This document shows positions 21,626 to 60,404 of a stretch of DNA of 64,000 nucleotides, piece after piece (the first letter of the stretch is position 1; every line of letters starts with the position of its first letter). Source of the DNA: an uncultured bacterium (GTDB taxonomy: Bacteria > Oederibacteriota > PGYV01 > CAWJRG01). The translations under genes and the position numbers were made by a program. The notes below the pieces were generated by a model. That model worked only from the letters and a program-made list of their open reading frames with translations. It did no database searches and had not been told where the DNA came from. Where the stretch lies: assembly GCA_963845185.1 (NCBI GenBank), contig CAWJRG010000010.1, positions 832,001 to 896,000 of the forward strand, in the 5' to 3' direction.

Positions 21626-21660
21626 GCCAGTCAAATAGTCCACAGGACTATTTGACTGGC
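21626..21660. repeat. Perfect 16-bp hairpin abutting family A copy 1
   Basis: GCCAGTCAAATAGTCC-ACA-GGACTATTTGACTGGC; related hairpin at 48876-48902. Confidence 0.8.
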
Positions 21661-21742
21661 TTGAGCCTCGGACTTGAACGGGTACAATATCTCGTAATGT
21701 TTTGTCTGCGCTATGAAGCTTGACAAAACAAACGATCTATTG
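21658..21742 (+). repeat. Structured element family A, copy 1 (5'-truncated)
   Basis: GCCTCGGACTTGAACGGGTAC followed by the GTAA..TGC..TT..AAC hairpin; ends at SD GGAGG. Confidence 0.85.
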
Positions 21743-21752
21743 GAGGCAGAAA

Positions 21753-22079
21753 ATGAAACAAGGCATGATTGTAACGACAGCATTTGAGATTCCGGGAAAA
21801 GAGATAGTTGAAAGCAAAGGGCTTGTGAGGGGAATAATAGTCAGGTCGCCCACAATAGTACAGGGGATATTCGGAGGTTTGAAAACCATAATAGGCGGCA
21901 AAATAGGCGCATACACTGAAATGTGCGAGCAGGCCAGGGAGCAGGCATACGAGGCAATGGAAGAACACGCCGCGGCAATAGGCGCCAATGCAGTTATAGG
22001 CTGCCGTTATGACGCTTCTGAAGTTGCAGTTGGAGCAACCGAAGTGCTTTGCTACGGCACGGCAGTGGTTGTAAGATAA
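21753..22079 (+). CDS. YbjQ/UPF0145 family protein
   Basis: GLKTIIGG, GANAVIG.RYD and YGTAV motifs. Confidence 0.93.
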   Translation: MKQGMIVTTAFEIPGKEIVESKGLVRGIIVRSPTIVQGIFGGLKTIIGGKIGAYTEMCEQAREQAYEAMEEHAAAIGANAVIGCRYDASEVAVGATEVLCYGTAVVVR

Positions 22080-22107
22080 ACAGACACCATACGAACTGAT
22101 TTTGTGT

Positions 22108-22136
22108 TTGACAAAGCAATTTTGAAAGCATATTAT
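22108..22136 (+). promoter_or_regulatory. Sigma70-type promoter upstream of the tandem family A copies
   Basis: TTGACA-17-TATTAT. Confidence 0.6.
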
Positions 22137-22193
22137 TTTATGTACCTACGAAGAATAGTAGATTCGAAGCAATAAAAAAACAAATTATGCCCA

Positions 22194-22388
22194 GCACCTC
22201 TTGACCTCGGCCTTATGGCCTCGGACTGGAGCGGGTACAAGATAGTGTAATATTTTGTCAGCGCCTGTTGACGGCTTGGCCAAGTGGACACCGCTTGTCT
22301 TCGGCCTGATGGCCTCAGACTTGAACGGGTGTATGTCGATGTAATTTTCGACTGCACCCAGCGGGTTTGTCTCAAAAACATCGACATA
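22194..22388 (+). repeat. Structured element family A, tandem copies 2 (22194-22291) and 3 (22288-22388)
   Basis: Two head-to-tail units; the second ends immediately before GGAGG. Confidence 0.88.
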
Positions 22389-22398
22389 GGAGGAATTC

Positions 22399-23094
22399 AT
22401 GAAGAAAATATTATTAGTGTCAGTTTTATGCATGTTTGCGGTGTCAGTGGCTCTTGCACAGCCAAAGAAAACTACAAACGGGGATATGTTTTCCTATATC
22501 CCGTACAAGAGCGCTACATGGAAGCAAAAAACCACGGTTGAGAACGACGCAGGCGTCAATACAATAGAACAGTCTGTGTGGTTCAAAGACAAAAAGATGC
22601 GGACAGAAGGTACGTATCTGGACAAGGGAACAGGCAAGGAAGGGGACCAGATAATAATTGTCACGGATAAATACATGTACGTAATAATTCCCGAAAAAAA
22701 ACAGGGCCTTCAATATTCCATGGACAGCGCGAATAATCCGGAAAAAGAACAGCAAAGCGTGGATAAATTCAGAAAAAACGCGAAGAAGACAGGGTCTGAA
22801 AAAATAAACGGTGTGGAATATGACATTTATAAATATTCATTTAATACCAAAAACGGCGCAAATAAAATTTATGCGGAGATTACAGAATGGCGGAACCAGA
22901 CAGACGGATTTCCGATGAAAACCGAAAGCTGGATGAAAATCACCGGAGAACAAACAGGGACAATGAAGACAATAACCGAAATAAGCGATTTAAAGATAAA
23001 TGCCGCGGTTCCAGACTCCAAATTCGTGCCTGACAGCGATATTCAAATAGGGGATATGGACGAGATGCTGAAGAAGACTGGGCAGAATAAATAG
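22399..23094 (+). CDS. Secreted protein, LolA-like/DUF4412-like
   Basis: Signal peptide; WFKDKKMR, GSEKING, GFPMK and VPDSKF motifs. Confidence 0.65.
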   Translation: MKKILLVSVLCMFAVSVALAQPKKTTNGDMFSYIPYKSATWKQKTTVENDAGVNTIEQSVWFKDKKMRTEGTYLDKGTGKEGDQIIIVTDKYMYVIIPEKKQGLQYSMDSANNPEKEQQSVDKFRKNAKKTGSEKINGVEYDIYKYSFNTKNGANKIYAEITEWRNQTDGFPMKTESWMKITGEQTGTMKTITEISDLKINAAVPDSKFVPDSDIQIGDMDEMLKKTGQNK

Positions 23095-23148
23095 ATATAA
23101 AGCAACAGAGTTATTTTTTAAATATAAACAATTCGGAAGAGGTAACAA

Positions 23149-24177
23149 ATGGGAAGCGTAAAAGAAGTGAAAGTTTTAAAATCTGCGGAAAAAGACAAGG
23201 AAGGCGAAGGAGAATTCATATTTTCAGACAGGTATTCGGTTTTTGACTGGGGAGAAATGCCTGACCATATTGACAAAAAAGGAGCTGCCTTATGCGTGCT
23301 TTCGGCTTTTTTCTTTGATATTCTTGATAAAAAAGGCGTAAGAACGCATTTTTTAGGGCTTGTTGAAGATGGAAAAGCAAAAAAGTTCGCAGAATTAAAA
23401 TCATATTCAAACAAAATGCGCGTCAAGCTGGTGAGGGTGCTAAAACCGGCTTACGACAGTCAAAAGAATTCCTATGATTACTCGGTTTACAACGGCGAAA
23501 AAGACAATTACCTTATTCCTCTCGAAGTGATTTACAGGAATAAGCTGGGAGATGGTTCAAGCGTTTTTAAAAGACTCAAATCCGGGGCAATCACATATAA
23601 GGATATGGGGCTTGACCATGAGCCAAAGCCGGGAGAAGTTCTTGTTGAACCCATAATAGATGTTTCAACCAAGCTTGAGCATATCGACAGGTACCTTGGG
23701 TGGGAGGAAGCAGCGGCAATTTCAGGCCTTTCGCCGGAAGGCATAAAGAAAGTAAAAGACCTTACCCTGCTGATAAACGGCGTCATAAGCGAGTATACTA
23801 AAAAATACGGAATAGAAAACGAGGATGGAAAATTCGAGTTTGCCATAGACAGGGAAGAAAACACCATGCTTATAGACGTGCTCGGGACGCCGGATGAATG
23901 CAGGTTCTCATATAAAGGTTTCCACATAAGCAAGGAATTCGCAAGGCGCTGGTACAGGAAAACAGAATGGTTTAACGAGGTTGAAAAGGCAAAAAAGGAA
24001 AGGGGCCGCGACTGGAAAAAGTTTGTAAAAATAAAGCCGGAGCCGTTGCCGGATGAGATGAAAATCCTCCTGTCGCACATGTACCTCGCAGTTACAAATG
24101 AAATAACAGGCAGGAGATTTTTTGATGTGCCCGAGCTTCCAAAAATCATAGAGGAGTTGAAAAAATATGACACCTGA
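23149..24177 (+). CDS. purC: SAICAR synthetase
   Basis: GSVK, FSDRYSVFD, IPLEVIYR, DGKFEF and GTPDECR motifs. Confidence 0.95.
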   Translation: MGSVKEVKVLKSAEKDKEGEGEFIFSDRYSVFDWGEMPDHIDKKGAALCVLSAFFFDILDKKGVRTHFLGLVEDGKAKKFAELKSYSNKMRVKLVRVLKPAYDSQKNSYDYSVYNGEKDNYLIPLEVIYRNKLGDGSSVFKRLKSGAITYKDMGLDHEPKPGEVLVEPIIDVSTKLEHIDRYLGWEEAAAISGLSPEGIKKVKDLTLLINGVISEYTKKYGIENEDGKFEFAIDREENTMLIDVLGTPDECRFSYKGFHISKEFARRWYRKTEWFNEVEKAKKERGRDWKKFVKIKPEPLPDEMKILLSHMYLAVTNEITGRRFFDVPELPKIIEELKKYDT

Positions 24178-24772
24178 AAATGTCCTGGCATACCGCCTGA
24201 GGGTGTTGAACAAAACAAAACAATATTATTACGGGGATACTTTGCTTGATGTGGGCTGCGGTGACGGCCTGGATGATGAGCTTATGCTGAAATATTTCAA
24301 AAGAATAGAGGGAATAGACATAAATGAAAATCCGGCGTGGAACGAGCACAGGAGGGAAAACCTTATATTGAAGAAAGCAGATGCGGAAAACCTGGATTAC
24401 CCGGACAATAGCTTTGATACTGTCATAGAAAAAGACGTACTGCACCACGTGTCTGACCCGGAAAAAGCCTTAAAAGAAATGACAAGAATAGCAAAGAAAA
24501 GAATAATACTAATAGAGGCAAACCGGTATAACCCGCTTTTTTACATTTTTTTGACTTTAATGTGGAAACACAACCATTTCAGACAGAAAAGATTCAAAGA
24601 ACTTGTAAAGTCAAGCGGCCTGCAGTCGGAAATTATGCATTTTTCCGCAAGAGTATGCCCAATAAACAACAGCGGATTTATAAAGTTTTTTGACAAACTG
24701 GAAGATCTTATTGAGAAATTCCCGCCTTATACGCCCATAATAGAATACAACCTGGCAATAATAACAAAATAA
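24167..24772 (+). CDS. Class I SAM-dependent methyltransferase
   Basis: LDVGCGDG, FD and VLHH motifs. Confidence 0.9.
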   Translation: MTPENVLAYRLRVLNKTKQYYYGDTLLDVGCGDGLDDELMLKYFKRIEGIDINENPAWNEHRRENLILKKADAENLDYPDNSFDTVIEKDVLHHVSDPEKALKEMTRIAKKRIILIEANRYNPLFYIFLTLMWKHNHFRQKRFKELVKSSGLQSEIMHFSARVCPINNSGFIKFFDKLEDLIEKFPPYTPIIEYNLAIITK

Positions 24773-25827
24773 TGCTTACCAGGATTGATAATGTTTTAAA
24801 AACAATAACAAAAAACCAAGCATTTTATATTTCCAACGCCTCAGATATTTTTTACCTTACAGGTTTTTCGGGGACTTTTGCCAGGATAATTGTAAAAGAA
24901 AAAAAAGCACATTTTATAACCGATTACAGATATGAAAAAGTCGTTGAAAAAACAGGCATTGAAAAAAAATTCAACGTAATAATAACAAAAGACCATGTAA
25001 AAGATACTAGGCTGCTTTTATCAGAGAGCAAAAAAGTTTATATGAGCAAAAAGACGCAGCTTGAGGAATATTTTTCAGTCAAGGACGGCATGGGTAAAGA
25101 AATAGAGTTCAGCAGCCTTATAAGCGATTTGAGGATGATAAAGGATAACGAGGAAGTAGAGCTCATAAAAAATGCGGTAAAAATAATCGAAGCAGGAATT
25201 AAATATATAACTTCCATTATAAGGGAAGGCATGAGCGAAAAAGACCTTGCAACAGAACTTGAATATTTTATAAAGAAAAACGGAGCTGAATCAATGTCTT
25301 TCCCGCCAATCATAGCCTTCGGGCAAAACTCAAATAGCCCGCATCATATAACTTCCATGAAAAAGCTGAAAAAAGGCGATGTAATCCTGATGGATACTGG
25401 CGTAAAATACAATGGTTATTGTTCTGACTTGACAAGGGTGGCAGGCTTCGGTATAATCAAATCTCGCCTAAAAGAGGTGGAAAAAAACTATAATCTTGTG
25501 CAGGAAGCCAAAAAAATAAGCCTTGATTCCTACAGGATAGGCATTTTCATAAATAAAGCCGAGCAAAAAGCAAGGGAATTCCTTAAGAAATGCGGGCTTG
25601 AGCGGTTTTTTACCCATTCGCTCGGACATTCCCTTGGAATAGATATACATGAATTACCGGCATGCAATTTAAAGGAAAATACCAGATTCAAAAAAGGACT
25701 GGTTTTGACCTGCGAGCCCGGAATATATTTAAAAAATTACGGTATAAGAATAGAAGATGATTACCTGATAACCAGTGCAGGGCCGGAAAAGCTCGGCAGG
25801 ATGAAAGATGATCTTATTGTGATTTAA
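24772..25827 (+). CDS. Xaa-Pro aminopeptidase (M24)
   Basis: YCSDLTR, HSLGHSLGIDIHE, EPGIY and GIRIEDD motifs. Confidence 0.93.
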   Translation: MLTRIDNVLKTITKNQAFYISNASDIFYLTGFSGTFARIIVKEKKAHFITDYRYEKVVEKTGIEKKFNVIITKDHVKDTRLLLSESKKVYMSKKTQLEEYFSVKDGMGKEIEFSSLISDLRMIKDNEEVELIKNAVKIIEAGIKYITSIIREGMSEKDLATELEYFIKKNGAESMSFPPIIAFGQNSNSPHHITSMKKLKKGDVILMDTGVKYNGYCSDLTRVAGFGIIKSRLKEVEKNYNLVQEAKKISLDSYRIGIFINKAEQKAREFLKKCGLERFFTHSLGHSLGIDIHELPACNLKENTRFKKGLVLTCEPGIYLKNYGIRIEDDYLITSAGPEKLGRMKDDLIVI

Positions 25828-25890
25828 CGATTTGACAATAAAATAGTTTAACAAACAAATGCAAAAATAATATCAAGGAGGCAAAGTTTT

Positions 25891-26454
25891 ATGTCTTTAG
25901 CAACAGATTTAAGGCCAGGTGCCATTATAAAACACGAGGGCATAATTTACGAGATAATATATTACCACCATGTCCAGAGGCCCAGGCTGGCGCCGCTGGT
26001 GCGTTTAAAAATGAAAAACATTAAACTTGGCACAGTTACAGAAAGGACTTTCAGCCCTGATGATAAAATGGAAGACGTGGCAGTTGAAGAAAGAAAACTC
26101 CAGTTTCAGTACAGGCAGGGAGATTCGCTTCATTTTATGGATACGGATTCTTATGAACAATACGAGTTTAACGAAAAGCAGATAGGCGAGCAGAGCCATT
26201 ACCTGAAAGAGGAAATGACAATATCCATGATGATATATGAAGGAGAAATCCTCGGCGTTGTTGTTCCGAACAAGGTGGATTTAAAAGTAGCGCAGGCGCC
26301 ACCTGCGGTAAAAGGCGATACGGTGAGCAACGCAACAAAAACAGCGGTGCTGGAAACAGGAACACAGGTACAGGTGCCGCTTTTTATAAAAGAAGGTGAT
26401 ACCGTCAGAGTCGACACAAGGACAGGAGAGTATGTGGAAAGGGTAAGCAATTGA
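25891..26454 (+). CDS. efp: Elongation factor P with atypical tip loop
   Basis: DLRPG, FMD..SYEQ, KGDT, LETG..VQVPLFI and DTRTGEYVER motifs. Confidence 0.96.
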   Translation: MSLATDLRPGAIIKHEGIIYEIIYYHHVQRPRLAPLVRLKMKNIKLGTVTERTFSPDDKMEDVAVEERKLQFQYRQGDSLHFMDTDSYEQYEFNEKQIGEQSHYLKEEMTISMMIYEGEILGVVVPNKVDLKVAQAPPAVKGDTVSNATKTAVLETGTQVQVPLFIKEGDTVRVDTRTGEYVERVSN

Positions 26455-26534
26455 CAAATCCGGGTGAAAATCCCGTAAAATATAACCGGCTTGATGAAAA
26501 AATAAAGCAATAAATTAAAAAGGCGGTGTAAAAA

Positions 26535-27050
26535 ATGCCAAAACAAGAAAAAGAACCCAAAGTGGATATAGATCTTATAAATCAGGTGCTGAAAATAATG
26601 GAAAAAGGAGACCTGGTTGAGCTCCTTGTCGAACAGGATAATTTTAAAATACAGCTGAAGAAAAGCGGGGCAAATATCATGCATTCAACGCCAACAATTT
26701 TTACAACATCGGCACCTGCAAATTTTCAGGCATCCGCAGGGCCTGTACAGTCAGCGGCAAGCACAGGGCCAGCTGCAGAAGCGGCAAAGCCTGTTGAAGA
26801 AGACCCGAATGTTCATACGGTGAAATCGCCAATGGTAGGGACTTTTTACAGGGCTCCGTCTCCTGACGCGGCGCCGTTTGTCAATATCGGCGACAATGTT
26901 TCGCCAGGCCAGACTCTGTGCATAATCGAAGCAATGAAAATAATGAACGAAATTAAATCAGAAATAAAAGGCAAGGTAAAGGAAGTCAGGGTTGAAAACG
27001 GACAGGCTGTTGAATTTAACCAGCCAATTATATTAATAGAAAAGACATAA
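26535..27050 (+). CDS. accB: Biotin carboxyl carrier protein
   Basis: SPMVGTFY and EAMKIMN motifs. Confidence 0.97.
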   Translation: MPKQEKEPKVDIDLINQVLKIMEKGDLVELLVEQDNFKIQLKKSGANIMHSTPTIFTTSAPANFQASAGPVQSAASTGPAAEAAKPVEEDPNVHTVKSPMVGTFYRAPSPDAAPFVNIGDNVSPGQTLCIIEAMKIMNEIKSEIKGKVKEVRVENGQAVEFNQPIILIEKT

Positions 27051-27068
27051 ACTGCAAAGGATGGCACA

Positions 27069-28415
27069 ATGTTTAAAAGGATTTTAATAGCAAACAGAGG
27101 CGAAATAGCGCTGCGAGTTATCCGCGCATGCAAGGAAATGGGCATTGAAACGGTTGCCGTATTTTCGGAAGCCGACGAAAATTCCCTTCACGTGCGTTAC
27201 GCTGACCACGCAATATGCATAGGCCCGGCCCAGGCAAAGGAAAGTTACCTTAATATGCCGGCCATCATTTCCGCGGCCGAAGTTACGGATTCAGAGGCAA
27301 TACACCCGGGTTACGGTTTTTTGGCTGAAAACGCCCATTTTGCTGAAATATGCGCGGAGTGCAATATAAAATTTATCGGGCCATATCCCGACGCCATTAA
27401 GGCAATGGGAGACAAGGCGCGCGCAATACAGACAGCCATCGCAAACAAAGTCCCTACTGTGCCGGGCAGCGGAAGAGTTTTAAAAGACGAGAACGACGCC
27501 GTGGAAATAGCAAAAAAGATAGGGTTCCCTGTCATGATAAAAGCATCTGCAGGAGGCGGCGGCAGGGGCATGAGGATTGCCCATACCGAGCTTTCGCTGC
27601 GCAACCTGTTTAACGTCGCCAGGCAGGAGGCGCAGACTGCTTTTAACGACCCGGCGGTTTACCTCGAAAAATATGTCGAGGAACCAAGGCATATTGAGAT
27701 ACAGATAATGGCCGATGAATACGGCAATTGCATCGCCCTGGGCGAAAGGGACTGCACTATCCAGCGGAGGCACCAGAAGCTCCTTGAAGAAACACCCTCG
27801 CCCATGCTCAACGAAAAATTAAGGCATGAGATGGGACTGCTTGCGGTGAAAATAGCAAAGGCAGTGAAATACGTAGGAGCCGGCACCATAGAATTTATCA
27901 TGGACAAAAACAGGGAATATTATTTCATGGAAATGAACACAAGGATTCAGGTCGAGCACCCGGTTACCGAGGAAGTCACAGGTTTTGACCTTATTAAAGA
28001 GCAGATAAAGGTCGCGTCCGGCAGGAGGCTTTCGTTTCCGCCAAAGGAACTCAAGCTGAGGGGACACGCCATAGAATGCAGGATAAACGCAGAAGACCCT
28101 GATAATAATTTCATACCATCGCCGGGCACAATTACGGAATATAACGTACCTGGCGGTGCAGGCATAAGGATAGACACGCATGTTTACAGGGGATATAAGA
28201 TACCGCCGTATTATGATTCAATGATGGCAAAAATAATAGCAAAAGGAAAAGACAGGGAAGAAGCAATAGAAAGAATGCAAAGGGCGCTTGATGAATTTGT
28301 AATAGAGGGAGTGAAAACAACCATACCGCTGCACAAAAGAATACTGGACAACGAGAATTTCCTCAGGAACAATTATTCCACATTATTTATAGAAAAACTG
28401 GAAAAGGAAAAATGA
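27069..28415 (+). CDS. accC: Biotin carboxylase
   Basis: ANRGEIA, GGGGRG, EMNTRIQVEH and YYDSM motifs. Confidence 0.98.
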   Translation: MFKRILIANRGEIALRVIRACKEMGIETVAVFSEADENSLHVRYADHAICIGPAQAKESYLNMPAIISAAEVTDSEAIHPGYGFLAENAHFAEICAECNIKFIGPYPDAIKAMGDKARAIQTAIANKVPTVPGSGRVLKDENDAVEIAKKIGFPVMIKASAGGGGRGMRIAHTELSLRNLFNVARQEAQTAFNDPAVYLEKYVEEPRHIEIQIMADEYGNCIALGERDCTIQRRHQKLLEETPSPMLNEKLRHEMGLLAVKIAKAVKYVGAGTIEFIMDKNREYYFMEMNTRIQVEHPVTEEVTGFDLIKEQIKVASGRRLSFPPKELKLRGHAIECRINAEDPDNNFIPSPGTITEYNVPGGAGIRIDTHVYRGYKIPPYYDSMMAKIIAKGKDREEAIERMQRALDEFVIEGVKTTIPLHKRILDNENFLRNNYSTLFIEKLEKEK

Positions 28416-28428
28416 TTTGAGGTGATTT

Positions 28429-28791: not shown

Positions 28792-28810
28792 TAACTAAAG
28801 GAGGACTTAC

Positions 28811-29368: not shown

Positions 29369-29370
29369 TA

Positions 29371-48827: not shown

Positions 48828-48875
48828 TCCCACTTGGGGGTAGTTTTTATATTAAATAACTTGTGGTAACAACCC

Positions 48876-48993
48876 GTTAAATAGTCTACCAGACTATTTA
48901 ACCTCTTGGCCGTAGGCCTTAGACTTGAACGGGTACAAGATATTGTAATGTTTTGTCTGCGCCTTCGGCTTGACAAAACAAACGTTATCTTGC
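48876..48993 (+). repeat. Structured element family A, copy 4, with upstream accessory hairpin
   Basis: GTTAAATAGTCT-ACC-AGACTATTTAAC, then ACCTCTTGGCC..AGACTTGAACGGGTAC and the GTAA/AAC hairpin. Confidence 0.85.
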
Positions 48994-49075: not shown

Positions 49076-49105
49076 TTGACAAACAACTATCTCATTTGAT
49101 ATACT
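49076..49105 (+). promoter_or_regulatory. Promoter of the marR-efflux operon
   Basis: TTGACA-18-TATACT. Confidence 0.55.
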
Positions 49106-51704: not shown

Positions 51705-51806
51705 GCACCTCTTGTCCTGGGCCTGGCGGCCTCGGACTTGAACGGGTGCATGCAAGAGTAATATTTTGCTGCGCCCTTTAGGGGCTTACAAAATAAACTC
51801 TTGCAT
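51705..51806 (+). repeat. Structured element family A, copy 5 (between tolC and MFP gene)
   Basis: Complete two-hairpin unit filling the intergenic gap and ending at AGGAGG. Confidence 0.9.
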
Positions 51807-51815
51807 AGGAGGAAT

Positions 51816-52788: not shown

Positions 52789-55700
52789 ATGAATATAGCA
52801 GGACTTGCCATAAAAAGGCCTGTCTTTATAGTTATGTTGGTTGCAAGTTTAATAACAATAGGCCTTGTTGGTTATTTCAGCCTTTCAGTAGACCTTTTAC
52901 CTAACGTGGAATTCCCAAATATCGTTGTTACAATAACATACCCGGGAGCTTCGGCTGAAGAAATGGAAAACCTAATAACAAAACCTTTGGAAGACTCTTT
53001 TTCCACACTTGAAGGGCTAGACAAAGTGATATCATCGTCAACTGAAGGGGTCTCTGTTGTAACAGCGCAATTCAAGCTCGGCGTTGATGTGAAATTTTCG
53101 GAAATAAAGGTGAGGGACAAGGTTGCGCTCACAAAAACAATATTACCCGACGGCATAAACGAGCCGATAATACAGAGGTTCACTTTTGCGGACATACCTA
53201 TACTTTTCATGTCTGTAGCCGGCAAGAGGGATACTGTAACATTGCGCGAGCTTATAGAAGACAAAATACAGCCCCGCATAGAGCAGCTGCCGGGTGTAGC
53301 CTCCATATATATATGGGGCGGCAGGAAACGGATAGTAAAGATAACAGTCGATAAAGCCCTGCTCCTGGCAAATAAACTGAATATGAACCAGATTACAGCC
53401 GCTATAAGCAGCAGGGACCTGAATTCTCCTGTTGGTATTGTAGAAGGGCCTGAAAAAAACATTACAGTAAGGGTAAAAGGAGAGTTTGAAGATGTAAATC
53501 AGATAGCCAATACCCCTATTACCTCTATGTCCGGGAAAATAGTCAGGATAAAGGACATTGCAAAAGTCGAGTTTACTGCAGAGGATGAAACCACCCGTGT
53601 GAGGGTTGGCAGTCAACCGGCAGCGTCATTTGCTGTTTTTAAGCAGAGCGGCGAGAATTCTGTACAAGTGGCAAAAGAGGTAATAAACGCAGTAAAAGAT
53701 ATCCAGAAAGACCTGCCCTCCGATGTAATTCTTGCGGTTAACGGCGATACAACCCGCGGTATTGTAAGGAGTATTGAGGGCGTCCAGGAAAACATATTAA
53801 TTGGAGCCTTACTTGCCATACTTATAGTATGGCTTTTCCTGGGTAATTTCAGGTCTGCAATAATAACTGCAGTTGCGCTTCCTGATTCCATAATCGGCGC
53901 ATTTTTTCTCATATGGATAGCAGGATTTTCGATAAACACAATAACCCTGCTTTCGCTTGCCCTGGCGGTCGGGCTGCTTATAGATGATTCAATTGTCGTG
54001 CGCGAAAATATATTCAGGCATATTGAAGAGGGCATGAAGCCTATGGAAGCCGCGGAAAAAGGCACAAATGAAGTCGCGCTTGCTGTAATATCAACCACAC
54101 TTTCCATAATGGCAGTATTCATTCCGATATCGTTTTTATCCGGCATGATTGGCCAGTTTTTCAGGCAGTTTGGACTGACAGTGGCTTTTGCCCTGGGAGT
54201 TTCTTTGCTTGATGCTTTTACCATGGCACCCATGCTTTCCGCCTACTGGTACAGGAAAAGCGACGAAAAGAAGAGGACAGGCTTTATAAAGTGGGTTTAC
54301 CAGCAATCGGATAACTGGAATAAATTTTACGATGAGCTAAAAAAAGTATACAAGGATATTATTGCATGGGCGCTCGAAAACAAGAAAAAGGTACTGCTTG
54401 CTGCTCTCATGCTTTTTGTGGCAAGCTTTAGTTCCTGCTTTTTCGTAGGAAAGGGATTCATGCAGCAGGATTCCGGGTACGCGATAATGAATATCCAGAC
54501 TTATACAGGCGCGCCGCTCGATAAAACAGATTCCTACATCAAAAAGCTGGAGGAGTTTGTGGCAAAACAGCCTGACGCTGAATCATATTTCATTATAACA
54601 GGCGGAGGATTTTCCCAGGACGCGAGGTCCAATACAGGCCTGCTTTTCATAACCATGAAGCCTTTAAGCCAGAGGAAGGTGACAAAGACAACAGATGATA
54701 TGCAGCAGGTAGTGAGGAAGTATATCAAGGACCAGAAGCTCGATAAATATATAACAGCGGCTTTTGCCGTAGGTGGAGGCATGGGCGGTGACAGCAACTC
54801 AAACACGCCTGTCCTGATAACAATTGCGGGAGATGACTTAAGGGTATTGTCCCAAATAGGGGAGAAAATCAAAAAAATAGTCCAGTCCACTCCCGGAACA
54901 GCCGATGTCGACATTTCAATAAAACCGGGACAGCCGGAAATAGTCCTGAAAGTGGACCCGATAAAATCTGAAAAACTTGGCCTTACAACCTATGATATAT
55001 CCACTGCGTTAAGGACGCTGGTGCAGGGTTTGAAAATAGCCATATATAAAAAAGCTGAAAAAAATTATGACATCATAATGCAGATGAACAAGTCGGACAG
55101 GAAAGTCACAGACGACATCAAAAGCATTTACCTCACAAGCAAAACAGGCAAAAAAATACCGCTTACTGCCGTGGCTGATTTTGAATACAGCTCGGGCCCG
55201 ACAGAAATAGACAGGGAAAATAAAACCAGGATCGTGCGCATCACGGCAAACCTGGCCCCGGGCTATAACACCGGCATGGTTAACGCAAAAATACAGCAGG
55301 CACTTGATAAGGAAGTAAAGCTTCCGACGAATTACAGGTACGTAGCCGGCGGCCAGCAAAAGCAGTTTATGGATGTTTTAACCCAGATGTCGCTTGCCAT
55401 GCTGCTTGCGTTTTTATTTATGTACATGATACTGGCTTCATTATATAATTCTTTTGTCCAGCCTTTTATTATAATGCTTTCTGTTATCCTGGCATTTATT
55501 GGAGGCCCGATAGCGCTGCTTATGACCGGTTACCAGCTTGACCTTTTTGCTTTTATAGGGCTTTTGATGGTCATGGGTTTAGCTGCAAAAAACGGAATAT
55601 TACTGCTTGATTTCACAAACAAAATGCGTCAGCGCGGCATGCAGATAAGGCAGGCGTTGCTGCACGCGGCACCAATACGGTTAAGGCCTATTTTGATGAC

Positions 55701-55935
55701 GACTTTTGCCATGATATTTGGCATGTTGCCTATAGCATTGTCAATGGGCGAGGGGGCCAAGGGAAGGGAATCCCTGGCAGTTGTAGTAATAGGAGGACTT
55801 TTGACATCCACATTCCTTACACTGGTAATTGTACCTGTGGTTTATGAGTGGGTAGAGGGCAAACTGGAAAAAGGAAAAGAAAAAAAGACTGTCAAAAAAA
55901 TAACTGGACGGGCAGCAAAAAAAATTATAGGATAA
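52789..55935 (+). CDS. RND efflux permease 1 (AcrB/AcrD/AcrF family)
   Basis: YPGAS, LIDDSIVV.ENI, KNGILL and RLRPILMTT motifs. Confidence 0.97.
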   Translation: MNIAGLAIKRPVFIVMLVASLITIGLVGYFSLSVDLLPNVEFPNIVVTITYPGASAEEMENLITKPLEDSFSTLEGLDKVISSSTEGVSVVTAQFKLGVDVKFSEIKVRDKVALTKTILPDGINEPIIQRFTFADIPILFMSVAGKRDTVTLRELIEDKIQPRIEQLPGVASIYIWGGRKRIVKITVDKALLLANKLNMNQITAAISSRDLNSPVGIVEGPEKNITVRVKGEFEDVNQIANTPITSMSGKIVRIKDIAKVEFTAEDETTRVRVGSQPAASFAVFKQSGENSVQVAKEVINAVKDIQKDLPSDVILAVNGDTTRGIVRSIEGVQENILIGALLAILIVWLFLGNFRSAIITAVALPDSIIGAFFLIWIAGFSINTITLLSLALAVGLLIDDSIVVRENIFRHIEEGMKPMEAAEKGTNEVALAVISTTLSIMAVFIPISFLSGMIGQFFRQFGLTVAFALGVSLLDAFTMAPMLSAYWYRKSDEKKRTGFIKWVYQQSDNWNKFYDELKKVYKDIIAWALENKKKVLLAALMLFVASFSSCFFVGKGFMQQDSGYAIMNIQTYTGAPLDKTDSYIKKLEEFVAKQPDAESYFIITGGGFSQDARSNTGLLFITMKPLSQRKVTKTTDDMQQVVRKYIKDQKLDKYITAAFAVGGGMGGDSNSNTPVLITIAGDDLRVLSQIGEKIKKIVQSTPGTADVDISIKPGQPEIVLKVDPIKSEKLGLTTYDISTALRTLVQGLKIAIYKKAEKNYDIIMQMNKSDRKVTDDIKSIYLTSKTGKKIPLTAVADFEYSSGPTEIDRENKTRIVRITANLAPGYNTGMVNAKIQQALDKEVKLPTNYRYVAGGQQKQFMDVLTQMSLAMLLAFLFMYMILASLYNSFVQPFIIMLSVILAFIGGPIALLMTGYQLDLFAFIGLLMVMGLAAKNGILLLDFTNKMRQRGMQIRQALLHAAPIRLRPILMTTFAMIFGMLPIALSMGEGAKGRESLAVVVIGGLLTSTFLTLVIVPVVYEWVEGKLEKGKEKKTVKKITGRAAKKIIG

Positions 55936-55962
55936 ATGCAGACTAAATATACATATGCAATT

Positions 55963-55998
55963 ACAGGCAGCCGAGGATTTAATCCCGCGGTTGCCTGT
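55963..55998. repeat. REP-like hairpin or possible attenuating terminator between the two efflux modules
   Basis: ACAGGCAGCCG...CGGTTGCCTGT followed by TTCAGTTT. Confidence 0.55.
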
Positions 55999-56030
55999 TT
56001 CAGTTTATGGACAAGAACCCGGAGTCGAAA

Positions 56031-56927
56031 ATGAAAAAGATACTTAAAAATTCAGCACTTGCGTTGTTGGCACTGATTGCCGCGCTTATGATATTCAGGA
56101 TAGCGGCCAAAATAATACAGGGCGCTGAGAAAAATAAAGAGCTGTTATACACAGTAGCCGGGAAAACCCTGAAGCCGGAAAGTGTCGATGTGATAATCAG
56201 GCTGAACGGAAACGCAGAGGGAGACCCGCAGGTGATGTCTTTCCCCATGCTTTCCGGGAAATTCGATAAAAATATTGTAAGTGAAGGCCAGCAGGTACAA
56301 AAGGGCCAGATAATAGCATATATCGACAGGGATATTGCCGGAGGCGGCTTTGAGCTTGAGCCTGTAAAGGCAGCATCAGGCGGAATGGTCATAAAGCTTT
56401 ATTACAGGGACAAAGGCGCAGAGGTATGGACAAACAGGCCCATAGCCGAGACAGGAGACAGCTCTGTAATAAAAGTATCAATTCCTGTGGGGCCGGAAGA
56501 AACCGAAAAGATAAAAAAGGGTATGGCTGCGAAAATTTATCCTGCAAATGACCCGGAGCAGGGAATAGAGGCCTCAGTTGAAAGTGTCACTCCATTTGTT
56601 AACGGCGAAAACTCAGATGGAAGAGTGATTGTCAAAGGCAAAAATGCTGACGGAAAAATAAAAATAGGAATGAATGTGACAGTAGAAGTCAACACAGGAA
56701 CAAAGCAGGCTTTTATGGTGCTTGAAAGGGCAGTGCTGCTCGGACAGGGCAGGGCATACGTTTTTATCAATGACCACGGCATAGCCCGCGAGCGATGGGT
56801 AAAGACGGGGTATATTAAAGGCGACTATATTGAGATAAGCGGCGACATAAAAGAGGGAGAGCAGATAGTGGTAAACGGGGCATTCATGCTGAATGACGGC
56901 GCGAAAATAGACTTCAAGGAACAATAA
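56031..56927 (+). CDS. RND periplasmic adaptor (MFP) 2
   Basis: Paralog of MFP 1 (EGDPQV, AY.DRD, ERAVLLG shared). Confidence 0.9.
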   Translation: MKKILKNSALALLALIAALMIFRIAAKIIQGAEKNKELLYTVAGKTLKPESVDVIIRLNGNAEGDPQVMSFPMLSGKFDKNIVSEGQQVQKGQIIAYIDRDIAGGGFELEPVKAASGGMVIKLYYRDKGAEVWTNRPIAETGDSSVIKVSIPVGPEETEKIKKGMAAKIYPANDPEQGIEASVESVTPFVNGENSDGRVIVKGKNADGKIKIGMNVTVEVNTGTKQAFMVLERAVLLGQGRAYVFINDHGIARERWVKTGYIKGDYIEISGDIKEGEQIVVNGAFMLNDGAKIDFKEQ

Positions 56928-56929
56928 AA

Positions 56930-59900
56930 ATGAATTTACCTGAAATTGCAGTTAAAAGGCCGGTTTTTATAGTAATGATAGTTGTCGCAATTATTACACT
57001 CGGCTTAATAGGCTATTCAAGAATGGCAGTTGAGCTCGTGCCAAATGTCGAGTTTCCAACAATAACGATCATGACTGTTTACCCCGGCGCGTCTTCGGAG
57101 GAAATAGAAAACCTAGTCTCAAGGCCGATAGAAGACTCGCTTGCAGCGGTGGAAGGAATAGAAAAGATAAGCTCGACTTCTTCAGAAGGGCTGTCGGAAG
57201 TAAATGTGCAGTTTAACCTGGGGACAGACATAAAATTTTCCGAAATAAAAGTCAGGGAAAAGGTACAGCTTGTCAAGCCAACCCTGCCAAAAGATATAGA
57301 CGACCCTATAGTGAGCAGGTTTTCTTTCCAGGATATAGAGGTCATAGACGCGTCAATAAAGGGCAACTTTGACCTTTTCAAGCTCAGGCAGCTTGCCGAA
57401 GACGTGGTAAAGACCAGGCTTGAAAAACTGCCCGGGGTGGGAGACGTGGAAATATGGGGCGGCAGGGAAAAGGAAGTAAAAATAGCAATATCAAAAGCGC
57501 TGCTTATCGCAAAGGGAGTAGGGCTTGATACAGTAATAAAAGCAGTCGCTTCGGAAAATGTAAACTATCCTGTCGGCGTCATGAAACGCGACGAGAAAAA
57601 CGTGACGGTAAGGGTAAAGGGGAAGTTTGAGACAATACAGGACATAGAAAACCTGCCGATAAAAACATATATGGGCTCGACAGTCCGGCTCAAGGATATC
57701 GCAAAAGTTACGTTTGACCTGAAAGAAGAGATGTCAAAAGCGCGTACCATGGGGACAAACGGGGTCATGTTCAGTGTTTTCAAGCAAAGCGGGTCAAACT
57801 CGATACAGGTCGCGGACGAGGTAACAGAAGCGCTGAAACATATGAAAAAATACCTTCCCGAGGGAGTCGAAACAAATGTAATTTACGATACCACGGTTTA
57901 TATAAGGCACAGCGTATCAGGAGTCCAGGAAAATATAATAATCGGGGCGCTGCTTGCCATACTTGTGGTATGGCTGTTTTTGGGGAATTTCCGATCCACC
58001 ATGATAACTGCCGTGGCTTTGCCGGACTCTTTGCTAGGAGCTTTTTTCCTGGTGTGGCTTGTCGGTTACTCGATAAACGTGATTTTGCTCATGGCTTTAT
58101 CGCTTGCCATAGGCCTGCTTATAGACGACTCGATAGTTGTGCGCGAAAATATTTTCAGACACGTGGAAGAGGGCATGGGAAACAAGGAAGCCGCTGTAAA
58201 AGGCACAAACGAGGTTTTTATGGCAGTAATTGCGACCACCCTGTCGATAATGGCTGTTTTTATACCTATATCCTTCATGACGGGCATAATAGGCAAAATG
58301 TTCAGCCAGTTTGGTTTTACGATAGCTTTTGCCCTGGTCATCTCGCTTTTTGACGCTTTCACTACAGCACCCATGCTTTCGGCTTACTGGTATAAAAAAG
58401 AGGAGCCGCATAAGAAAGGATTTGCGAAATTCGCGGCAGACCTTTCAAAAAAATGGAATGAATTTTATTATAACTTAAACGACATTTACAAGGAAATACT
58501 GCTGTGGGCACTGGGCAGAAAGTGGACAGTAATAGGCGTCTCGGCCATGCTTTTTGGCGCCAGTTTTTTTATTGTGCCGTATCTTGACAAAGGATTTTTT
58601 AACGCAGGCGACGAGGGTATGTTTACAGTAAATGTGGAAGCGTATCCGGGAGCTCCAATAGGCAGGCTTGACAGCGACTTGAAGGCAATAGAGGCATTTA
58701 TAATGAAACAGCCTTCGGTTGAAAGTTATTTTTCACGCATTGGCGGAGGAAGGTCGGCGGCGGACCAGAACCAGGGATTTATTTTCGGGACAATGAAGCC
58801 TGAGGGAAAAAGAATATTATCATCCAAGGAACAGTCCCAGGTAATAAAGGATTATATAAGGAAAAATTTCGGCAGGGAGCTTTTTGTTTACGAGGAAACG
58901 CACGGCGCAGAGGCGGTACTTTCCGGCTCAAACAGCACAAGCCCTATCACACTTGAAATAAAAGGCGACGACCTTACGGTTCTGGAAGACCTTGGCAGGC
59001 AGGCAAAGAAAATAGCGCAGGAGATACCGGGAGCAATAGACGTAAACACCTCTTTCAAGCCCGCAAAACCGGAGCTGGTTGTAAAACTTGACAGGACAAA
59101 GGCGGCAAAGCTCGGGATATCGACAGCTGAAATAGGGCAGACCCTGAATACTTTAATAGAGGGATATAAGATTTCCGATTACAGGAGCGAAGGAAAGGAC
59201 TACGATATTGTAGTGCGGATGGATAAAAAAGACATATCCACGGTTGACGACCTGCATGGACTGATGATTACAACACAGACAGGCGCAAAGGTGCCCCTGG
59301 ATGCTGTCGCGACAATTTACTATTCATCGGCGCCGGTTGAGATACTGCGTGAAGACAAGACAAGGATGGTAAAGATAAATGTGAACGTAGCAAAAGGCTA
59401 CTCACTCGGTGAGATAGTGGTAAAAATTGATAAAAGGCTGAAAAAAGAAATAAATTGGCCGGAGGGGTATATGTACGAGTTTACCGGCGAGGACAAACAG
59501 ATGAAAGACATGGCAACGCAGATGATACTTGTTATACTTCTTTCTGTGCTGTTTATGTACATGATACTCGCATCGCTTTATAACTCTTTTATCCAACCTC
59601 TTATCCTGATGCTGTCTGTACCTCTGGCAATCATAGGGGCTTTTACAGCACTTTTGATTACAAAAAAGCCGCTCGATATGATGGGATTTATAGGGATACT
59701 CATGGTGCTCGGGCTTGTGGCAAAAAACGCGATACTGCTTATAGATTTTACAAACAAGAAAAGGGAGCAAGGCATGTCTATAAGGGAAGCATTATTACAC
59801 GCGGGCCCTGTACGCCTGAGGCCAATACTTATGACGACATTTGCCATGATATTCGGCATGTTGCCCATTGCGCTTGGCATAGGCGAGGGCGGCCGCGGCA

Positions 59901-60055
59901 TGGAATCAATGCCTGTGGCTGTGATAGGCGGGCTGTTGACTTCCACTTTCCTTACTCTGATAGTGGTACCTGTTGTATATGAACAGGTTGAGACTTGGTT
60001 GGAAAAAAGAAAAGCTTATAAAGTAAAAGGCTTAAAAGCTAAAAAAATAAATTAA
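56930..60055 (+). CDS. RND efflux permease 2
   Basis: Same RND motifs; paralog of permease 1. Confidence 0.97.
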   Translation: MNLPEIAVKRPVFIVMIVVAIITLGLIGYSRMAVELVPNVEFPTITIMTVYPGASSEEIENLVSRPIEDSLAAVEGIEKISSTSSEGLSEVNVQFNLGTDIKFSEIKVREKVQLVKPTLPKDIDDPIVSRFSFQDIEVIDASIKGNFDLFKLRQLAEDVVKTRLEKLPGVGDVEIWGGREKEVKIAISKALLIAKGVGLDTVIKAVASENVNYPVGVMKRDEKNVTVRVKGKFETIQDIENLPIKTYMGSTVRLKDIAKVTFDLKEEMSKARTMGTNGVMFSVFKQSGSNSIQVADEVTEALKHMKKYLPEGVETNVIYDTTVYIRHSVSGVQENIIIGALLAILVVWLFLGNFRSTMITAVALPDSLLGAFFLVWLVGYSINVILLMALSLAIGLLIDDSIVVRENIFRHVEEGMGNKEAAVKGTNEVFMAVIATTLSIMAVFIPISFMTGIIGKMFSQFGFTIAFALVISLFDAFTTAPMLSAYWYKKEEPHKKGFAKFAADLSKKWNEFYYNLNDIYKEILLWALGRKWTVIGVSAMLFGASFFIVPYLDKGFFNAGDEGMFTVNVEAYPGAPIGRLDSDLKAIEAFIMKQPSVESYFSRIGGGRSAADQNQGFIFGTMKPEGKRILSSKEQSQVIKDYIRKNFGRELFVYEETHGAEAVLSGSNSTSPITLEIKGDDLTVLEDLGRQAKKIAQEIPGAIDVNTSFKPAKPELVVKLDRTKAAKLGISTAEIGQTLNTLIEGYKISDYRSEGKDYDIVVRMDKKDISTVDDLHGLMITTQTGAKVPLDAVATIYYSSAPVEILREDKTRMVKINVNVAKGYSLGEIVVKIDKRLKKEINWPEGYMYEFTGEDKQMKDMATQMILVILLSVLFMYMILASLYNSFIQPLILMLSVPLAIIGAFTALLITKKPLDMMGFIGILMVLGLVAKNAILLIDFTNKKREQGMSIREALLHAGPVRLRPILMTTFAMIFGMLPIALGIGEGGRGMESMPVAVIGGLLTSTFLTLIVVPVVYEQVETWLEKRKAYKVKGLKAKKIN

Positions 60056-60127
60056 AAAATATGGTACGAAAAGCAATCTAGTTCTTATTATTATGAGGGA
60101 CAGTTACTATAAAAATTATAGACAAAA

Positions 60128-60192
60128 ACCCGGGGCATTACCCTCCAAACCCCCTCTTATTAATTCCCCTTATTTTGCCCCGGGTCTTTTTT
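60128..60192 (+). terminator. Intrinsic-terminator-like stem with unusually long C-rich loop
   Basis: ACCCGGGGCA/TGCCCCGGGT followed by CTTTTTT. Confidence 0.6.
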
Positions 60193-60234
60193 ATTTTGAT
60201 ATTTTATATAAACCATAAAATATTAACAAAATAC

Positions 60235-60263
60235 TTGACAAACAATAAAATATCAATTATAAT
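60235..60263 (+). promoter_or_regulatory. Consensus sigma70 promoter upstream of family A copy 6
   Basis: TTGACA-17-TATAAT. Confidence 0.75.
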
Positions 60264-60310
60264 TAATGCACTAAGGATAAAAATAGAATTGTTAGTTTAA
60301 AAAACAAAGA

Positions 60311-60404
60311 GTACCACTTGTCCCTCGCAAGTTCGGGACTGGAACGGGTATAAGCAAGAGTAATATTTTGCTGTACCCTGAAGGTTTGCAAAATAAACTC
60401 TTGC
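60311..60404 (+). repeat. Structured element family A, copy 6 (5' UTR)
   Basis: GTACC-ACTT-GTCCC..GGGAC-TGGAACG-GGTAT plus GCAAGA-GTAA..AAC-TCTTGC, then ATAGGAGG. Confidence 0.88.

Follow-up and report, generated by a model that had tools for sequence, protein, structure and literature searches.

What places the same pair of hairpins in front of unrelated bacterial genes? In a window of 64,000 nucleotides (the whole stretch of DNA that we analyzed) from the genome GCA_963845185.1, an earlier note had described six copies of a two-hairpin element, here called element A. It proposed that the element was either a cis-regulatory RNA similar to a riboswitch or a non-autonomous palindromic element that carries its own ribosome-binding site. 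Element A is a folded repeat of about 100-105 nt with roughly 180 copies in this genome, which is 99.4% complete. We give about an even chance to the explanation that it is a structured RNA module, specific to this lineage, which spread as a non-autonomous cassette at the 5' edge of Shine-Dalgarno (SD) sites and forms a co-transcribed leader.

Six copies in the window

We built a covariance model from 30 copies in the genome; it had exactly six matches in the window, and these were the same six that the earlier note had located, at nearly the same positions. All of them are on the + strand, but they are not all intact: another repeat (repeat B) interrupts copies 1 and 4, and copy 2 lacks its last arm.

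Copy 1 begins with a 13-nt piece (21579-21591) that includes the 5' strand of P1, the internal loop, and the 5' arm of P2, and that matches alignment columns 4-16. A 66-nt, two-hairpin copy of repeat B (21592-21657, + strand) is inserted into hairpin 1 and separates this piece from the remainder of copy 1 (21658-21742), which is the 3' part only (68.9 bits). The last helix ends at GGAGG (21742-21746), and the ATG of a YbjQ-family gene (PF01906) is at 21753. Copies 2 and 3 are in tandem. Copy 2 (22194-22287; 50.2 bits) has a degenerate tail in which P3 has no 3' arm, and copy 3 begins at the position expected for this absent arm of the last helix. Copy 3 (22288-22388) is complete (101.5 bits; -39.7 kcal/mol, z = -5.1) and is followed by GGAGG (22389-22393) and by the ATG (22399) of a 231-amino-acid protein with a signal-peptide-like start.

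Copy 4 has a 5' piece (about 48829-48836), then repeat B (about 48837-48902, + strand) inserted into hairpin 1, and then the remainder (48903-48993; 68.2 bits). It is an orphan, with no GGAG behind it, and the gene that comes next has its promoter-like site (49076-49105) downstream of the copy. Copy 5 (51705-51806; complete; 105.8 bits; -53.2 kcal/mol, z = -6.8) occupies the gap from the upstream gene's stop (51699) to the AGGAGG (51807-51812) of an HlyD-type membrane-fusion gene. Copy 6 (60311-60406; complete; 88.3 bits; z = -4.3) is followed by AGGAGG (60407-60412) and by the ATG (60419) of a 263-amino-acid protein with no match in Pfam. Thus, the docking on GGAGG that had been described is true of copies 1, 3, 5, and 6, but not of copy 4.

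Two of the loci are behind promoters, as had been proposed. A sigma-70-like site (22108-22136, + strand; 11 of 12 matches) precedes copies 2 and 3, and a consensus site (60235-60263, + strand; 12 of 12) lies 48 nt upstream of copy 6. These sites are upstream of the copies and not within them, which argues against element A being a portable promoter whose TTGA(A/G)C and TAAT blocks drive the downstream gene. Both blocks are conserved, and for some copies a terminator-like hairpin is only 10-20 nt upstream, too close for another promoter to fit in between. However, the spacer is 15 nt, about a third of the copies have TGGA instead of TTGA, and a consensus scan flagged only a 9/12 site in copy 1 and nothing in copies 3, 5, and 6. 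Also, if transcription started inside the element, the 5' arms of P1-P3 would not be transcribed, and their covariation would have no explanation. We consider this explanation extremely unlikely.

A conserved fold in about 180 copies

Across the genome, nhmmer found 181 matches to element A, of which 134 are near full length. The repeat is built from two neighboring, imperfect hairpins whose internal loops are invariant. The motifs that had been described for the two hairpins are borne out by invariant columns of the alignment, except that RNAalifold places base pairs between the G-U of GTAA and the A-C of AAC.

There is good support for the two-hairpin fold. The covariation seen in six copies extends to the alignment of 30, in which 23 of 29 pairs changed on both sides. 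Across 92 genome matches, 92.2% of the pairing cells were compatible with the fold, as compared to 73.7% in shuffles (0 of 500 shuffles scored as high) and at most 41% when the partners were slid, and 24 of the 29 pairs showed compensatory change. Matches in related genomes gave similar results (92.2% versus 67.7% in shuffles; compensatory change in 26 of 29 pairs). Thus, the structure is kept under compensatory change, as the earlier note had claimed. Its view that this is not a known RNA family also held up: a search of Rfam with element A found nothing at gathering scores and nothing at E values up to 10.

The copies are not a young burst. Their median pairwise identity is 63%, and they form eight subfamilies by hairpin 2; the private differences within these avoid the GUAA, P4, and AAAC core.

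Which strand is functional had been considered ambiguous, and for the source genome this was fair. Both strands fold equally well, and the ratio of G·U to A·C was 51:75, or 50:46 if the two outermost pairs are left out, or 21:18 among SD-adjacent copies. In the relatives, G·U outnumbers A·C by 37:7, which differs from 50:46 (P = 3e-4, Fisher's exact test) and is as expected for RNA, or for a single DNA strand, from the element's own strand.

Placement relative to genes

Most element A matches (162 of 181) have the same orientation as the gene that follows. These counts rely on crude ORF calls, and missed short genes explain a few of the 19 exceptions. In gaps between co-directional genes, the counts were 127 co-oriented versus 9 opposite, so the co-orientation noticed in the window holds genome-wide.

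An SD site and a start codon follow 99 of the 152 copies with an intact 3' end, and in 88 of these 99, the start is 17-22 nt past the end of the model. In 75 of 81 copies, the GGAG starts 7-9 nt downstream of the conserved AAC; the element stops 0-3 nt before it, and the spacing from SD to start varies from 9 to 14 nt. In contrast, GGAG is missing after the last helix in 8 copies internal to tandem arrays and in 23 copies that have no gene after them. Therefore, the GGAG is part of the target, not of the repeat, and the proposal that the element brings its own ribosome-binding site is not supported. Among 101 copies in co-directional gaps, 28 start within 40 nt of the end of the upstream gene, too near for a separate promoter to lie in between.

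Copies also adjoin each other. The tail of another copy is directly upstream of 22 of 112 copies (0 in shuffles), and one tandem array contains seven copies. Repeat B has 43 oriented copies in the genome; 36 of them are within 120 nt of an element A match, all 36 in the same orientation as element A, and repeat B is nested inside many element A copies.

These placements do not point to a specific switch. We scanned 37 downstream proteins and their functions are unrelated; the prevalence of envelope, secretion, or efflux genes suggested by the window does not hold genome-wide. No alternative fold that sequesters the SD site was predicted for element A, and in the relatives, the copies are antisense to their neighbors. 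The riboswitch-like reading is therefore not supported.

Element A in related genomes

In 23 other genomes from the same order, we found 0 to 18 matches per genome, versus at least 94 scored in the source genome. The module is rare in the sister families (1-18 matches), where it is antisense to its neighbors, either beside terminators or between fabG and acpP in the fab operon. With the exception of one family, it never adjoins an SD site. The fabG-acpP gap contains element A in five relatives and is empty in the source genome; similarly, the radC-TPR gap contains it in one genus and is empty in the source genome. At the orthologous fabG-acpP site, compensatory changes have preserved the copy in five genomes from two families.

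Neither the 23 genomes, all from other families, nor a metagenome scan (at most 53% protein identity) offered an empty site in a near-identical genome, so we infer insertion from the distribution of the element. This distribution, the tandem arrays, and the nesting of repeat B suggest turnover and mobility.

Another explanation is a post-transcriptional regulon: the module would bind one trans-acting factor, such as a lineage-specific RNA-binding protein or the ribosome, and put over 100 genes under shared control at the level of translation, while the free-standing copies in relatives would be decoys or titrators. Across families, the stems covary around loops whose nucleotides do not change, the core is nearly free of private differences, and pairing is better in SD-adjacent copies than in the remaining copies (95.1% versus 91.9%). 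The docking to within 1 nt, the strict orientation, the strand-specific tolerance of G·U in relatives, and the maintenance of the fabG-acpP copy also fit. However, the downstream genes share no pathway, and no candidate factor is known. G·U shows no bias over A·C in the source genome, not even among the SD-adjacent copies. Many copies are orphans, stand in tandem arrays, or are split by repeat B; copy number varies over 10-fold between families; and outside one family, the antisense copies of the relatives are not beside SD sites. A regulon is a minority possibility that we consider unlikely.

How element A might have spread

In the spreading-cassette explanation that we favor, the module would have multiplied to about 180 copies in the lineage of the source genome. 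It would land in a single orientation immediately 5' of the GGAG of an SD site or, alternatively, just 3' of an earlier copy, which would create tandem arrays. Because it lands directly 5' of GGAG, it would be co-transcribed as the last 100 nt or so of 5' leaders or intercistronic spacers. A very stable fold upstream of a still accessible SD site may act as a generic leader, both a barrier to decay from the 5' end and an insulator of the ribosome-binding site, and not as a specific switch. SD accessibility was 0.55 with element A and 0.48 for control genes (P = 0.06). Most copies in the source genome would be evolving nearly neutrally. On the other hand, the spared core and the better pairing of SD-adjacent copies fit some selection in place, and docking this precise could itself be functional. 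The non-autonomous structured element of the earlier note is thus closer to the evidence than its riboswitch, but not as a classical palindromic MITE or REP: we found no terminal inverted repeats or target duplications at the copies and no Y1 transposase in the source genome. Nor did we identify any other mobilizing enzyme for element A there.

We considered two mechanisms of copying. First, the structured RNA might be reverse transcribed and inserted by a group II intron reverse transcriptase (RT), as a bacterial counterpart of a SINE. The source genome contains six group II introns of about 1.92 kb that are 99.4-99.8% identical. They home to translation starts (GGAGG, 5-7 nt, ATGA, intron), so a ribonucleoprotein that recognizes ribosome-binding sites exists in the cell. 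RVT_1 was found in just 1 of the 23 other genomes, which has no match to element A, and the lack of inverted termini, target duplication, and a transposase also fits. But the co-occurrence of RT and element is a single case (n = 1), and one relative has SD-adjacent copies with no RT match. Element A has no A-tail and no bias toward 5' truncation (most truncated matches are copies split by repeat B), and it inserts 5' of GGAG while the intron inserts after ATGA. Also, the introns are nearly identical but the element copies are diverse, which implies different time scales. Overall, copying through RNA seems quite improbable.

Second, element A might be a REP/REPIN or a derivative of IS200/IS605, mobilized in single-stranded form by a Y1 (HUH) transposase through recognition of the hairpins and a short target, which would be CCTCC on the opposite strand in the source genome and the T-tract of terminators in the relatives. 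Two hairpins without inverted termini or target duplication, strict orientation, head-to-tail arrays, insertion beside a short fixed motif, and the position next to terminators in relatives are all expected; the strand-specific tolerance of G·T is compatible with a single DNA strand as well; and three relatives (G014, G001, and G019) have eight Y1_Tnp matches each. However, PF01797 and PF07282 have no match in the source genome despite its completeness, and tblastn with the relatives' Y1 proteins (321-341 amino acids) found no match there either. None of four Y1 loci in the relatives is flanked by the element (filters off, E up to 1), and the counts do not track each other: G019 has eight Y1 matches and three elements, while the source genome has none and about 180 elements. 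The two hairpins are also unlike each other. We regard a Y1 origin as very unlikely.

Comparison with known systems

BOX of pneumococcus, ERIC/IRU of enterobacteria, and Correia of Neisseria are non-autonomous repeats, 100-150 nt long, whose RNA folds; they are co-transcribed with neighboring genes and can alter mRNA stability or expression. Element A would likewise be a non-autonomous, structured, co-transcribed intergenic repeat. However, these families have terminal inverted repeats or modular boxes (Correia also has a TA target duplication) and insert in either orientation at variable distances from genes. To our knowledge, docking within 1 nt of an SD site has not been reported for any of them.

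REP/REPIN with RAYT and elements derived from IS200/IS605 resemble element A in having hairpins without inverted termini or target duplication, oriented insertion by a short motif, and head-to-tail clusters, and they are often beside terminators, as element A is in relatives. But their defining Y1 transposase was not found in the source genome and is unlinked to element A in relatives, and element A is longer, with two unlike hairpins and conserved asymmetric internal loops.

The SINEs of eukaryotes, such as Alu, which derives from 7SL RNA, offer an analogy: a structured RNA family that is high-copy in one lineage, low-copy in its sisters, and coexists with an active RT element. Element A differs in lacking an A-tail, target duplication, and 5' truncation and in its site-specific insertion, and its copying through RNA is hypothetical. 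The T-box and c-di-GMP-I riboswitches also combine a conserved fold, invariant loops, and many co-oriented copies in 5' leaders next to ribosome-binding sites. In contrast, element A has no common pathway, expression platform, or Rfam match, and the related genomes have antisense, gene-independent copies.

A close parallel is REP2 of Neisseria, which is described as a dispersed intergenic repeat with two internal stem-loops and about 26 copies, and to which IR-A/IR-B of Borrelia plasmids are similar (Delihas 2011, PMC3184786). As described there, REP2 and IR-A/IR-B share with element A a length of 100-150 nt, no terminal inverted repeats, two stem-loops, and a place directly upstream of unrelated ORFs, within the 5' UTR. 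But in that account REP2 itself carries a promoter, ribosome-binding site, and ATG, and its genes are co-regulated on contact with host cells, whereas element A stops just short of GGAG, has promoter-like sites outside it, precedes genes with no common function, and has about 180 copies. The stems of element A also covary across subfamilies and bacterial families; here the contrast with REP2 is by description and not by sequence. Element A may lie outside the described families of RNAs and mobile elements, as a new kind of portable gene leader.

A family of structured repeats in the window's genome

All six copies of the two-hairpin element that the earlier note had placed in the window are present, and they align over ~100 columns, but two of them are interrupted and one is incomplete. 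In copies 1 and 4, hairpin 1 is interrupted by a different 66-nt repeat, which we call repeat B (at 21592-21657 and about 48837-48902); these two copies truly begin upstream of it, with 5' ends at 21579-21591 and about 48829-48836. The last helix of copy 2 is missing its 3' arm, and copy 3 follows without a break.

An HMM from the six copies was iterated (E up to 1e-3) on the genome that contains the window, which comprises 3.50 Mb in 11 contigs, and it gave 172, then 183, then 181 matches. Most of the final matches (134 of 181) extend from model position 5 or earlier to position 88 or later, and the family makes up ~18 kb of the genome's intergenic DNA. We also built a covariance model, R1, from 30 of the genomic copies. 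It had 92 matches in 464 kb (the fetched loci and the window). A further 537 kb of metagenome DNA, from 44 loci gathered with an AcrB-like neighbor protein in a search for empty sites in close relatives, proved to be unrelated (best identity, 53%); R1 had no match there, and this set served only as a negative control. The main element is a real family.

About nine weak matches form a variant family, in which hairpin 1 is common to the main element, the second hairpin differs, and a third short hairpin follows. Examples in the window's genome (G000) are C10:122656-122736 (-), C9:137909-137994 (+), and C9:17952-18033 (+). In many cases, a standard copy comes directly after the variant.

Predicted structure and covariation

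From 30 copies, RNAalifold predicts two adjacent hairpins. Hairpin 1 consists of helix P1, an asymmetric internal loop (N-C-U-U opposite U-K-G-A-R-C-G), helix P2, and a variable tip; hairpin 2 consists of P3, an A-A/A loop, P4, a small junction, and P5. Both sides change at 23 of the 29 pairs in this alignment. Across the 92 R1 matches, 92.2% of cells pair, versus 73.7% in column shuffles (0 of 500 shuffles were as high), although this overstates the significance because the alignment was fitted to R1 and its rows are paralogues. Two other lines of evidence are independent of R1: the 30-copy alignment, which was made with MAFFT, and controls with slid partners, in which pairing across the 92 matches was at most 41%. 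Compensatory changes were seen at 24 of the 29 pairs in the 92 matches, which bears out the earlier observation that the stems change in a compensatory way.

Folded singly, the copies reach -33 to -53 kcal/mol (z of -4.3 to -6.8), and their reverse strand folds equally well. The ratio of G·U to A·C in the window's genome is 50:46 if the two outermost P1 pairs are left out, and it is 21:18 in the copies that are adjacent to a Shine-Dalgarno (SD) sequence. Thus, within this genome, the functional strand is as ambiguous as the earlier note had said, and the mismatches look unfiltered.

Position relative to genes and Shine-Dalgarno sequences

Using crude, ORF-based gene calls for gene orientation, we found that 162 of the 181 copies are oriented toward the next gene, and some of the 19 exceptions are due to short genes that the ORF caller missed. 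In gaps between co-directional genes, 127 copies are co-oriented with the genes and 9 are opposite (binomial P = 8e-28). Twenty-eight of 101 copies in such gaps start 40 nt or less past the end of the upstream gene and are therefore intercistronic.

An SD-like motif, a start codon, and an open frame follow 99 of the 152 copies with an intact 3' end, and the start codon lies 17-22 nt past the end of the model in 88 of these 99. We anchored 112 copies on the conserved AAC: 76 are followed by an SD, a start codon, and an open frame; 5 are followed by an SD only; 8 run into the next copy; and 23 have neither an SD nor a next copy (4 of these 23 show a weaker SD with an ATG). The SD motif starts 7-9 nt past the AAC in 75 of 81 copies, while anything from 9 to 14 nt separates the SD from the start codon. 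It is thus the GGAG, and not the start codon, to which the repeat is fixed.

We considered whether the element might bring its own ribosome-binding site (RBS), as had been proposed. Sequence similarity among the copies stops after the GGAG (as seen in a logo), and the GGAG is absent after the last helix in 31 of the 112 anchored copies, namely, the 23 orphans and the 8 copies that are internal to tandem arrays. Because copies without a gene do not carry it, the GGAG belongs to the site and not to the repeat, and the proposal fails. The related claim that copies are docked on ribosome-binding sites holds, given the spacing from the AAC, except for orphans, such as copy 4, and copies that are internal to tandem arrays. 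No GGAG follows copy 4, and the promoter-like site of the gene after it lies downstream of the copy, at 49076-49105 (11 of 12 matches, with TG).

Copies 2/3 and 6 do lie between a promoter-like site and a start codon, much as first described: they are behind strong matches at 22108-22136 and at 60235-60263, respectively, and the latter matches the consensus at 12 of 12 positions. A promoter inside the repeat was rejected, as a consensus scan flagged none of copies 3, 5, and 6, and the promoter-like sites are upstream of the repeat.

The element is probably not a specific switch

A riboswitch or other specific leader would be expected to precede genes with a common function. We scanned 37 of the 99 SD-linked downstream proteins, namely, those within the fetched loci, and found no common function. 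Twenty-six of the 37 had Pfam matches, and their functions are unrelated: the families include RNase J-like proteins, GatC, PEBP, TPR, ABC ATPase, HtrA, FGGY kinase, NuoF/NuoB-like proteins, a response regulator, and others. This spread also does away with the earlier impression, from the window, that the downstream genes are mostly related to the envelope, secretion, or efflux.

Nor did thermodynamic prediction show a clear masking or exposure of the SD, whose unpaired probability is 0.55, versus 0.48 in 200 control genes (P = 0.06). The conserved 5' segment of the element is somewhat like the 3' end of 16S rRNA, and in copies with U at the N of its ACC-N-CUU it is able to pair with AGGAGG. 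However, in partition-function folding of 79 leaders, predicted pairing of the SD with the 5' segment averaged just 4.5%, or 17% if N is U, and anti-SD mimicry was rejected. Given the unrelated genes and the predicted accessibility, the main element is probably not a specific switch.

Arrays, repeat B, and turnover

Some copies occur in head-to-tail arrays. The window's genome contains a seven-copy array with a 100-nt period at C9:916585-917175 (-), which corresponds to L001:204-810 among the fetched loci. More broadly, the 3' tail of another copy lies 1-9 nt upstream of 22 of the 112 anchored copies and of none in shuffles. A three-copy array with a 98-nt period was also seen in a relative (locus L100).

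Repeat B is about 66-72 nt long, with two near-perfect hairpins. Of its 43 oriented copies in the genome, 36 lie within 120 nt of a main-element copy, always co-oriented with it. It occurs at only a few fixed positions, namely, in the hairpin 1 tip, at the junction of P4 and P5, or immediately ahead of the SD.

We looked for the usual marks of transposition. For target-site duplications, the longest flank repeat averaged 2.5 nt, versus 2.2 nt in re-paired flanks, and the longer flank repeats derive from tandem arrays. As read from the alignments, the ends have no terminal inverted repeats beyond a complement of 4 nt or less (CTTG/CAAG). A 5'-truncation bias was not found either: most of the seemingly truncated matches are copies that are split by repeat B. 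Small ORFs after three repeated copies were considered as a transposase and rejected because they are only short frames.

The family is not a recent burst. The median pairwise identity of the copies is 63%, and hairpin 2 falls into at least eight subfamilies that are set apart by paired changes. Private differences within subfamilies occur at a rate of 7.0% in paired and 8.4% in unpaired columns, and they spare the core formed by GUAA, P4, and AAAC. Six copies of one subfamily, GCTATA, have no SD after them and are instead followed by a common T-rich block of repeated TTTTCAAT-like units (for example, at G000 C9:671476, C5:32834, and C1:208468). This block may be a further repeat module.

Relatives of the window's genome

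R1 was run on 23 genomes from other families of the same order, of which it matched 11, and on 17 other genomes from the phylum, of which it matched none. The matching relatives have 1-18 matches each, versus at least 94 that scored in the window's genome. A strict motif scan of one genome per species (185,579 species) turned up the motif in just four other assemblies, as 14 stretches; one of the four is titled candidate division FCPU426, and none is titled Neisseria. A scan of viral contigs had no matches.

Copies that are adjacent to an SD, as in the window's genome, were found in one other family. Other relatives have a different arrangement. In five genomes from two families, one copy lies between the fabG stop codon and acpP and is oriented against the fab operon (translation confirmed the genes in three of the five genomes, and an identical flank did so in the other two); the corresponding gap in the window's genome is empty. 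In one genus, both neighbors are on the opposite strand at 17 of 18 loci, and an A-run and a GC-rich hairpin follow the element. The hairpin is the terminator, often bidirectional, of a convergent gene 47-66 nt away; about 9 of 15 loci have a T-run with it on the strand of the element. A free-standing small RNA gene would have a promoter as well as a terminator of its own: many copies in relatives are preceded by a TATTAT-like block, but a consistent -35 element was not found. At three orthologous loci of one genus (L022, L025, and L107), the element is directly preceded by a long, near-perfect palindrome (~19 bp per arm).

The structure is conserved in the relatives: in their 38 matches, 92.2% of cells pair, versus 67.7% in shuffles, and 26 of the 29 pairs are compensatory. 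Here, G·U outnumbers A·C by 37:7, which favors the element's own strand and differs from the window's genome (Fisher P = 3e-4), although R1 scores G·U above A·C and this may slightly bias the alignment of distant matches. We read this as the relatives keeping the structure on the element's own strand, whether as RNA or as single-stranded DNA.

Candidate copying machinery

First, we considered Y1 transposases. The window's genome, which is 99.4% complete, has no matches to PF01797 (Y1 transposase) or to PF07282 (the zinc-ribbon domain of TnpB). Three relatives, G014, G001, and G019, have eight Y1 matches each, including intact genes for proteins of 321-341 amino acids, and these proteins had no tblastn match in the window's genome. 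At four Y1 loci from the three relatives, R1 did not match beside the Y1 gene even when filters were switched off and E values up to 1 were allowed. Y1 counts do not track element counts. These negatives weigh against the comparison with IS200/IS605 derivatives.

Second, the window's genome contains six group II introns, each ~1.92 kb long and 99.4-99.8% identical to the others: one at 1-1306 (+) of the window and five more on contigs 9, 10, and 11. All six are preceded by GGAGG, 5-7 nt, and ATGA, begin with GTGCG, and are followed by an A-run. They have homed to translation starts, and each sits within the first codons of a gene that seems to begin with Met-Lys-Lys. (An ORF call in the window, 1289-1963, starts in intron domain VI and is in frame with the downstream exon.) The main element is not a derivative of these introns by the models we used, as the Rfam intron model matches only 1216-1302 and not the repeats, and R1 does not match the intron region. 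Among the 23 remaining genomes from the order, just 1 has a reverse transcriptase (RVT_1) match. The co-occurrence of the introns and the main element is a single case, and we treat it as a lead and not as evidence.

Possible origin and significance

How the module is copied and how it affects the genes behind it are questions on which we infer. Our tests agree best with a main reading, about as likely as not, in which the main element is a mobile structured leader placed before RBSs. A bolder reading, which we consider a long shot, is that the main element is an RNA-derived mobile cassette, a bacterial counterpart of SINEs that would also serve as a natural insulator of the RBS. In this scenario, a small structured RNA from the order would have been copied via an RNA or single-strand intermediate, without a classical transposase, to sites exactly at the 5' edge of Shine-Dalgarno sequences. 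It might have been copied with the ribonucleoprotein of the RBS-homing group II intron, which would be active only in the window's genome, and the cassette would now give a standard structured leader to over 100 unrelated genes.

If the main reading holds, the main element would be the clearest example to date of a small structured repeat that lands by recognizing the region where translation starts, and a single bacterium would have equipped about 3% of its genes with the same folded leader of 100 nt. It would bear on how non-autonomous elements are copied without inverted repeats or a transposase. Synthetic biologists put structured "insulator" leaders between the promoter and the RBS, and the reading would also bear on the natural use of such leaders by bacteria. 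In sister lineages, the module behaves like a selected RNA beside terminators, and the family might therefore be a natural before-and-after series of a dispersed repeat born from an RNA gene. The family also matters for annotation: ~18 kb of one genome's intergenic DNA belongs to it, and Rfam does not contain it.

Comparison with known systems

As far as our searches show, the main element is undescribed. When we compared both strands of the whole window to Rfam 15, the gathering score was reached only by a tRNA and by one domain of a group II intron, and neither is on the repeats. (The tRNA gene, at 16775-16848 [-], scored 76.3 bits; it has a CAU-type anticodon loop in the alignment and is ordinary.) With E up to 10, the matches to copies 2/3 and 5 were noise: the best scored 14 bits, versus a gathering score of 100. 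This agrees with the earlier note, which did not recognize a known riboswitch or ribozyme. We also did not find a published description in titles and the openings of abstracts.

Unlike classical miniature inverted-repeat elements (MITEs), which are derivatives of DDE transposons, the main element has neither inverted termini nor target duplications. Unlike REP/REPIN-RAYT systems or the PATEs of IS200/IS605, it has no cognate Y1 (HUH) enzyme in its genome, and it does not flank the Y1 genes of relatives (four loci).

The closest described analogue is the REP2 repeat of Neisseria, with the IR elements of Borrelia. These are described as having no inverted termini and two stem-loops, as lying immediately upstream of genes, and as numbering about 26 copies, with the promoter, RBS, and ATG in the repeat (PMC3184786). 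By that description, the main element differs from REP2 in that it does not have its own RBS (the GGAG is absent after 31 of 112 copies), and its promoter-like sites are upstream of the repeat and not inside. Like REP2, it is intergenic, without inverted termini, and places two internal stem-loops immediately upstream of ORFs.
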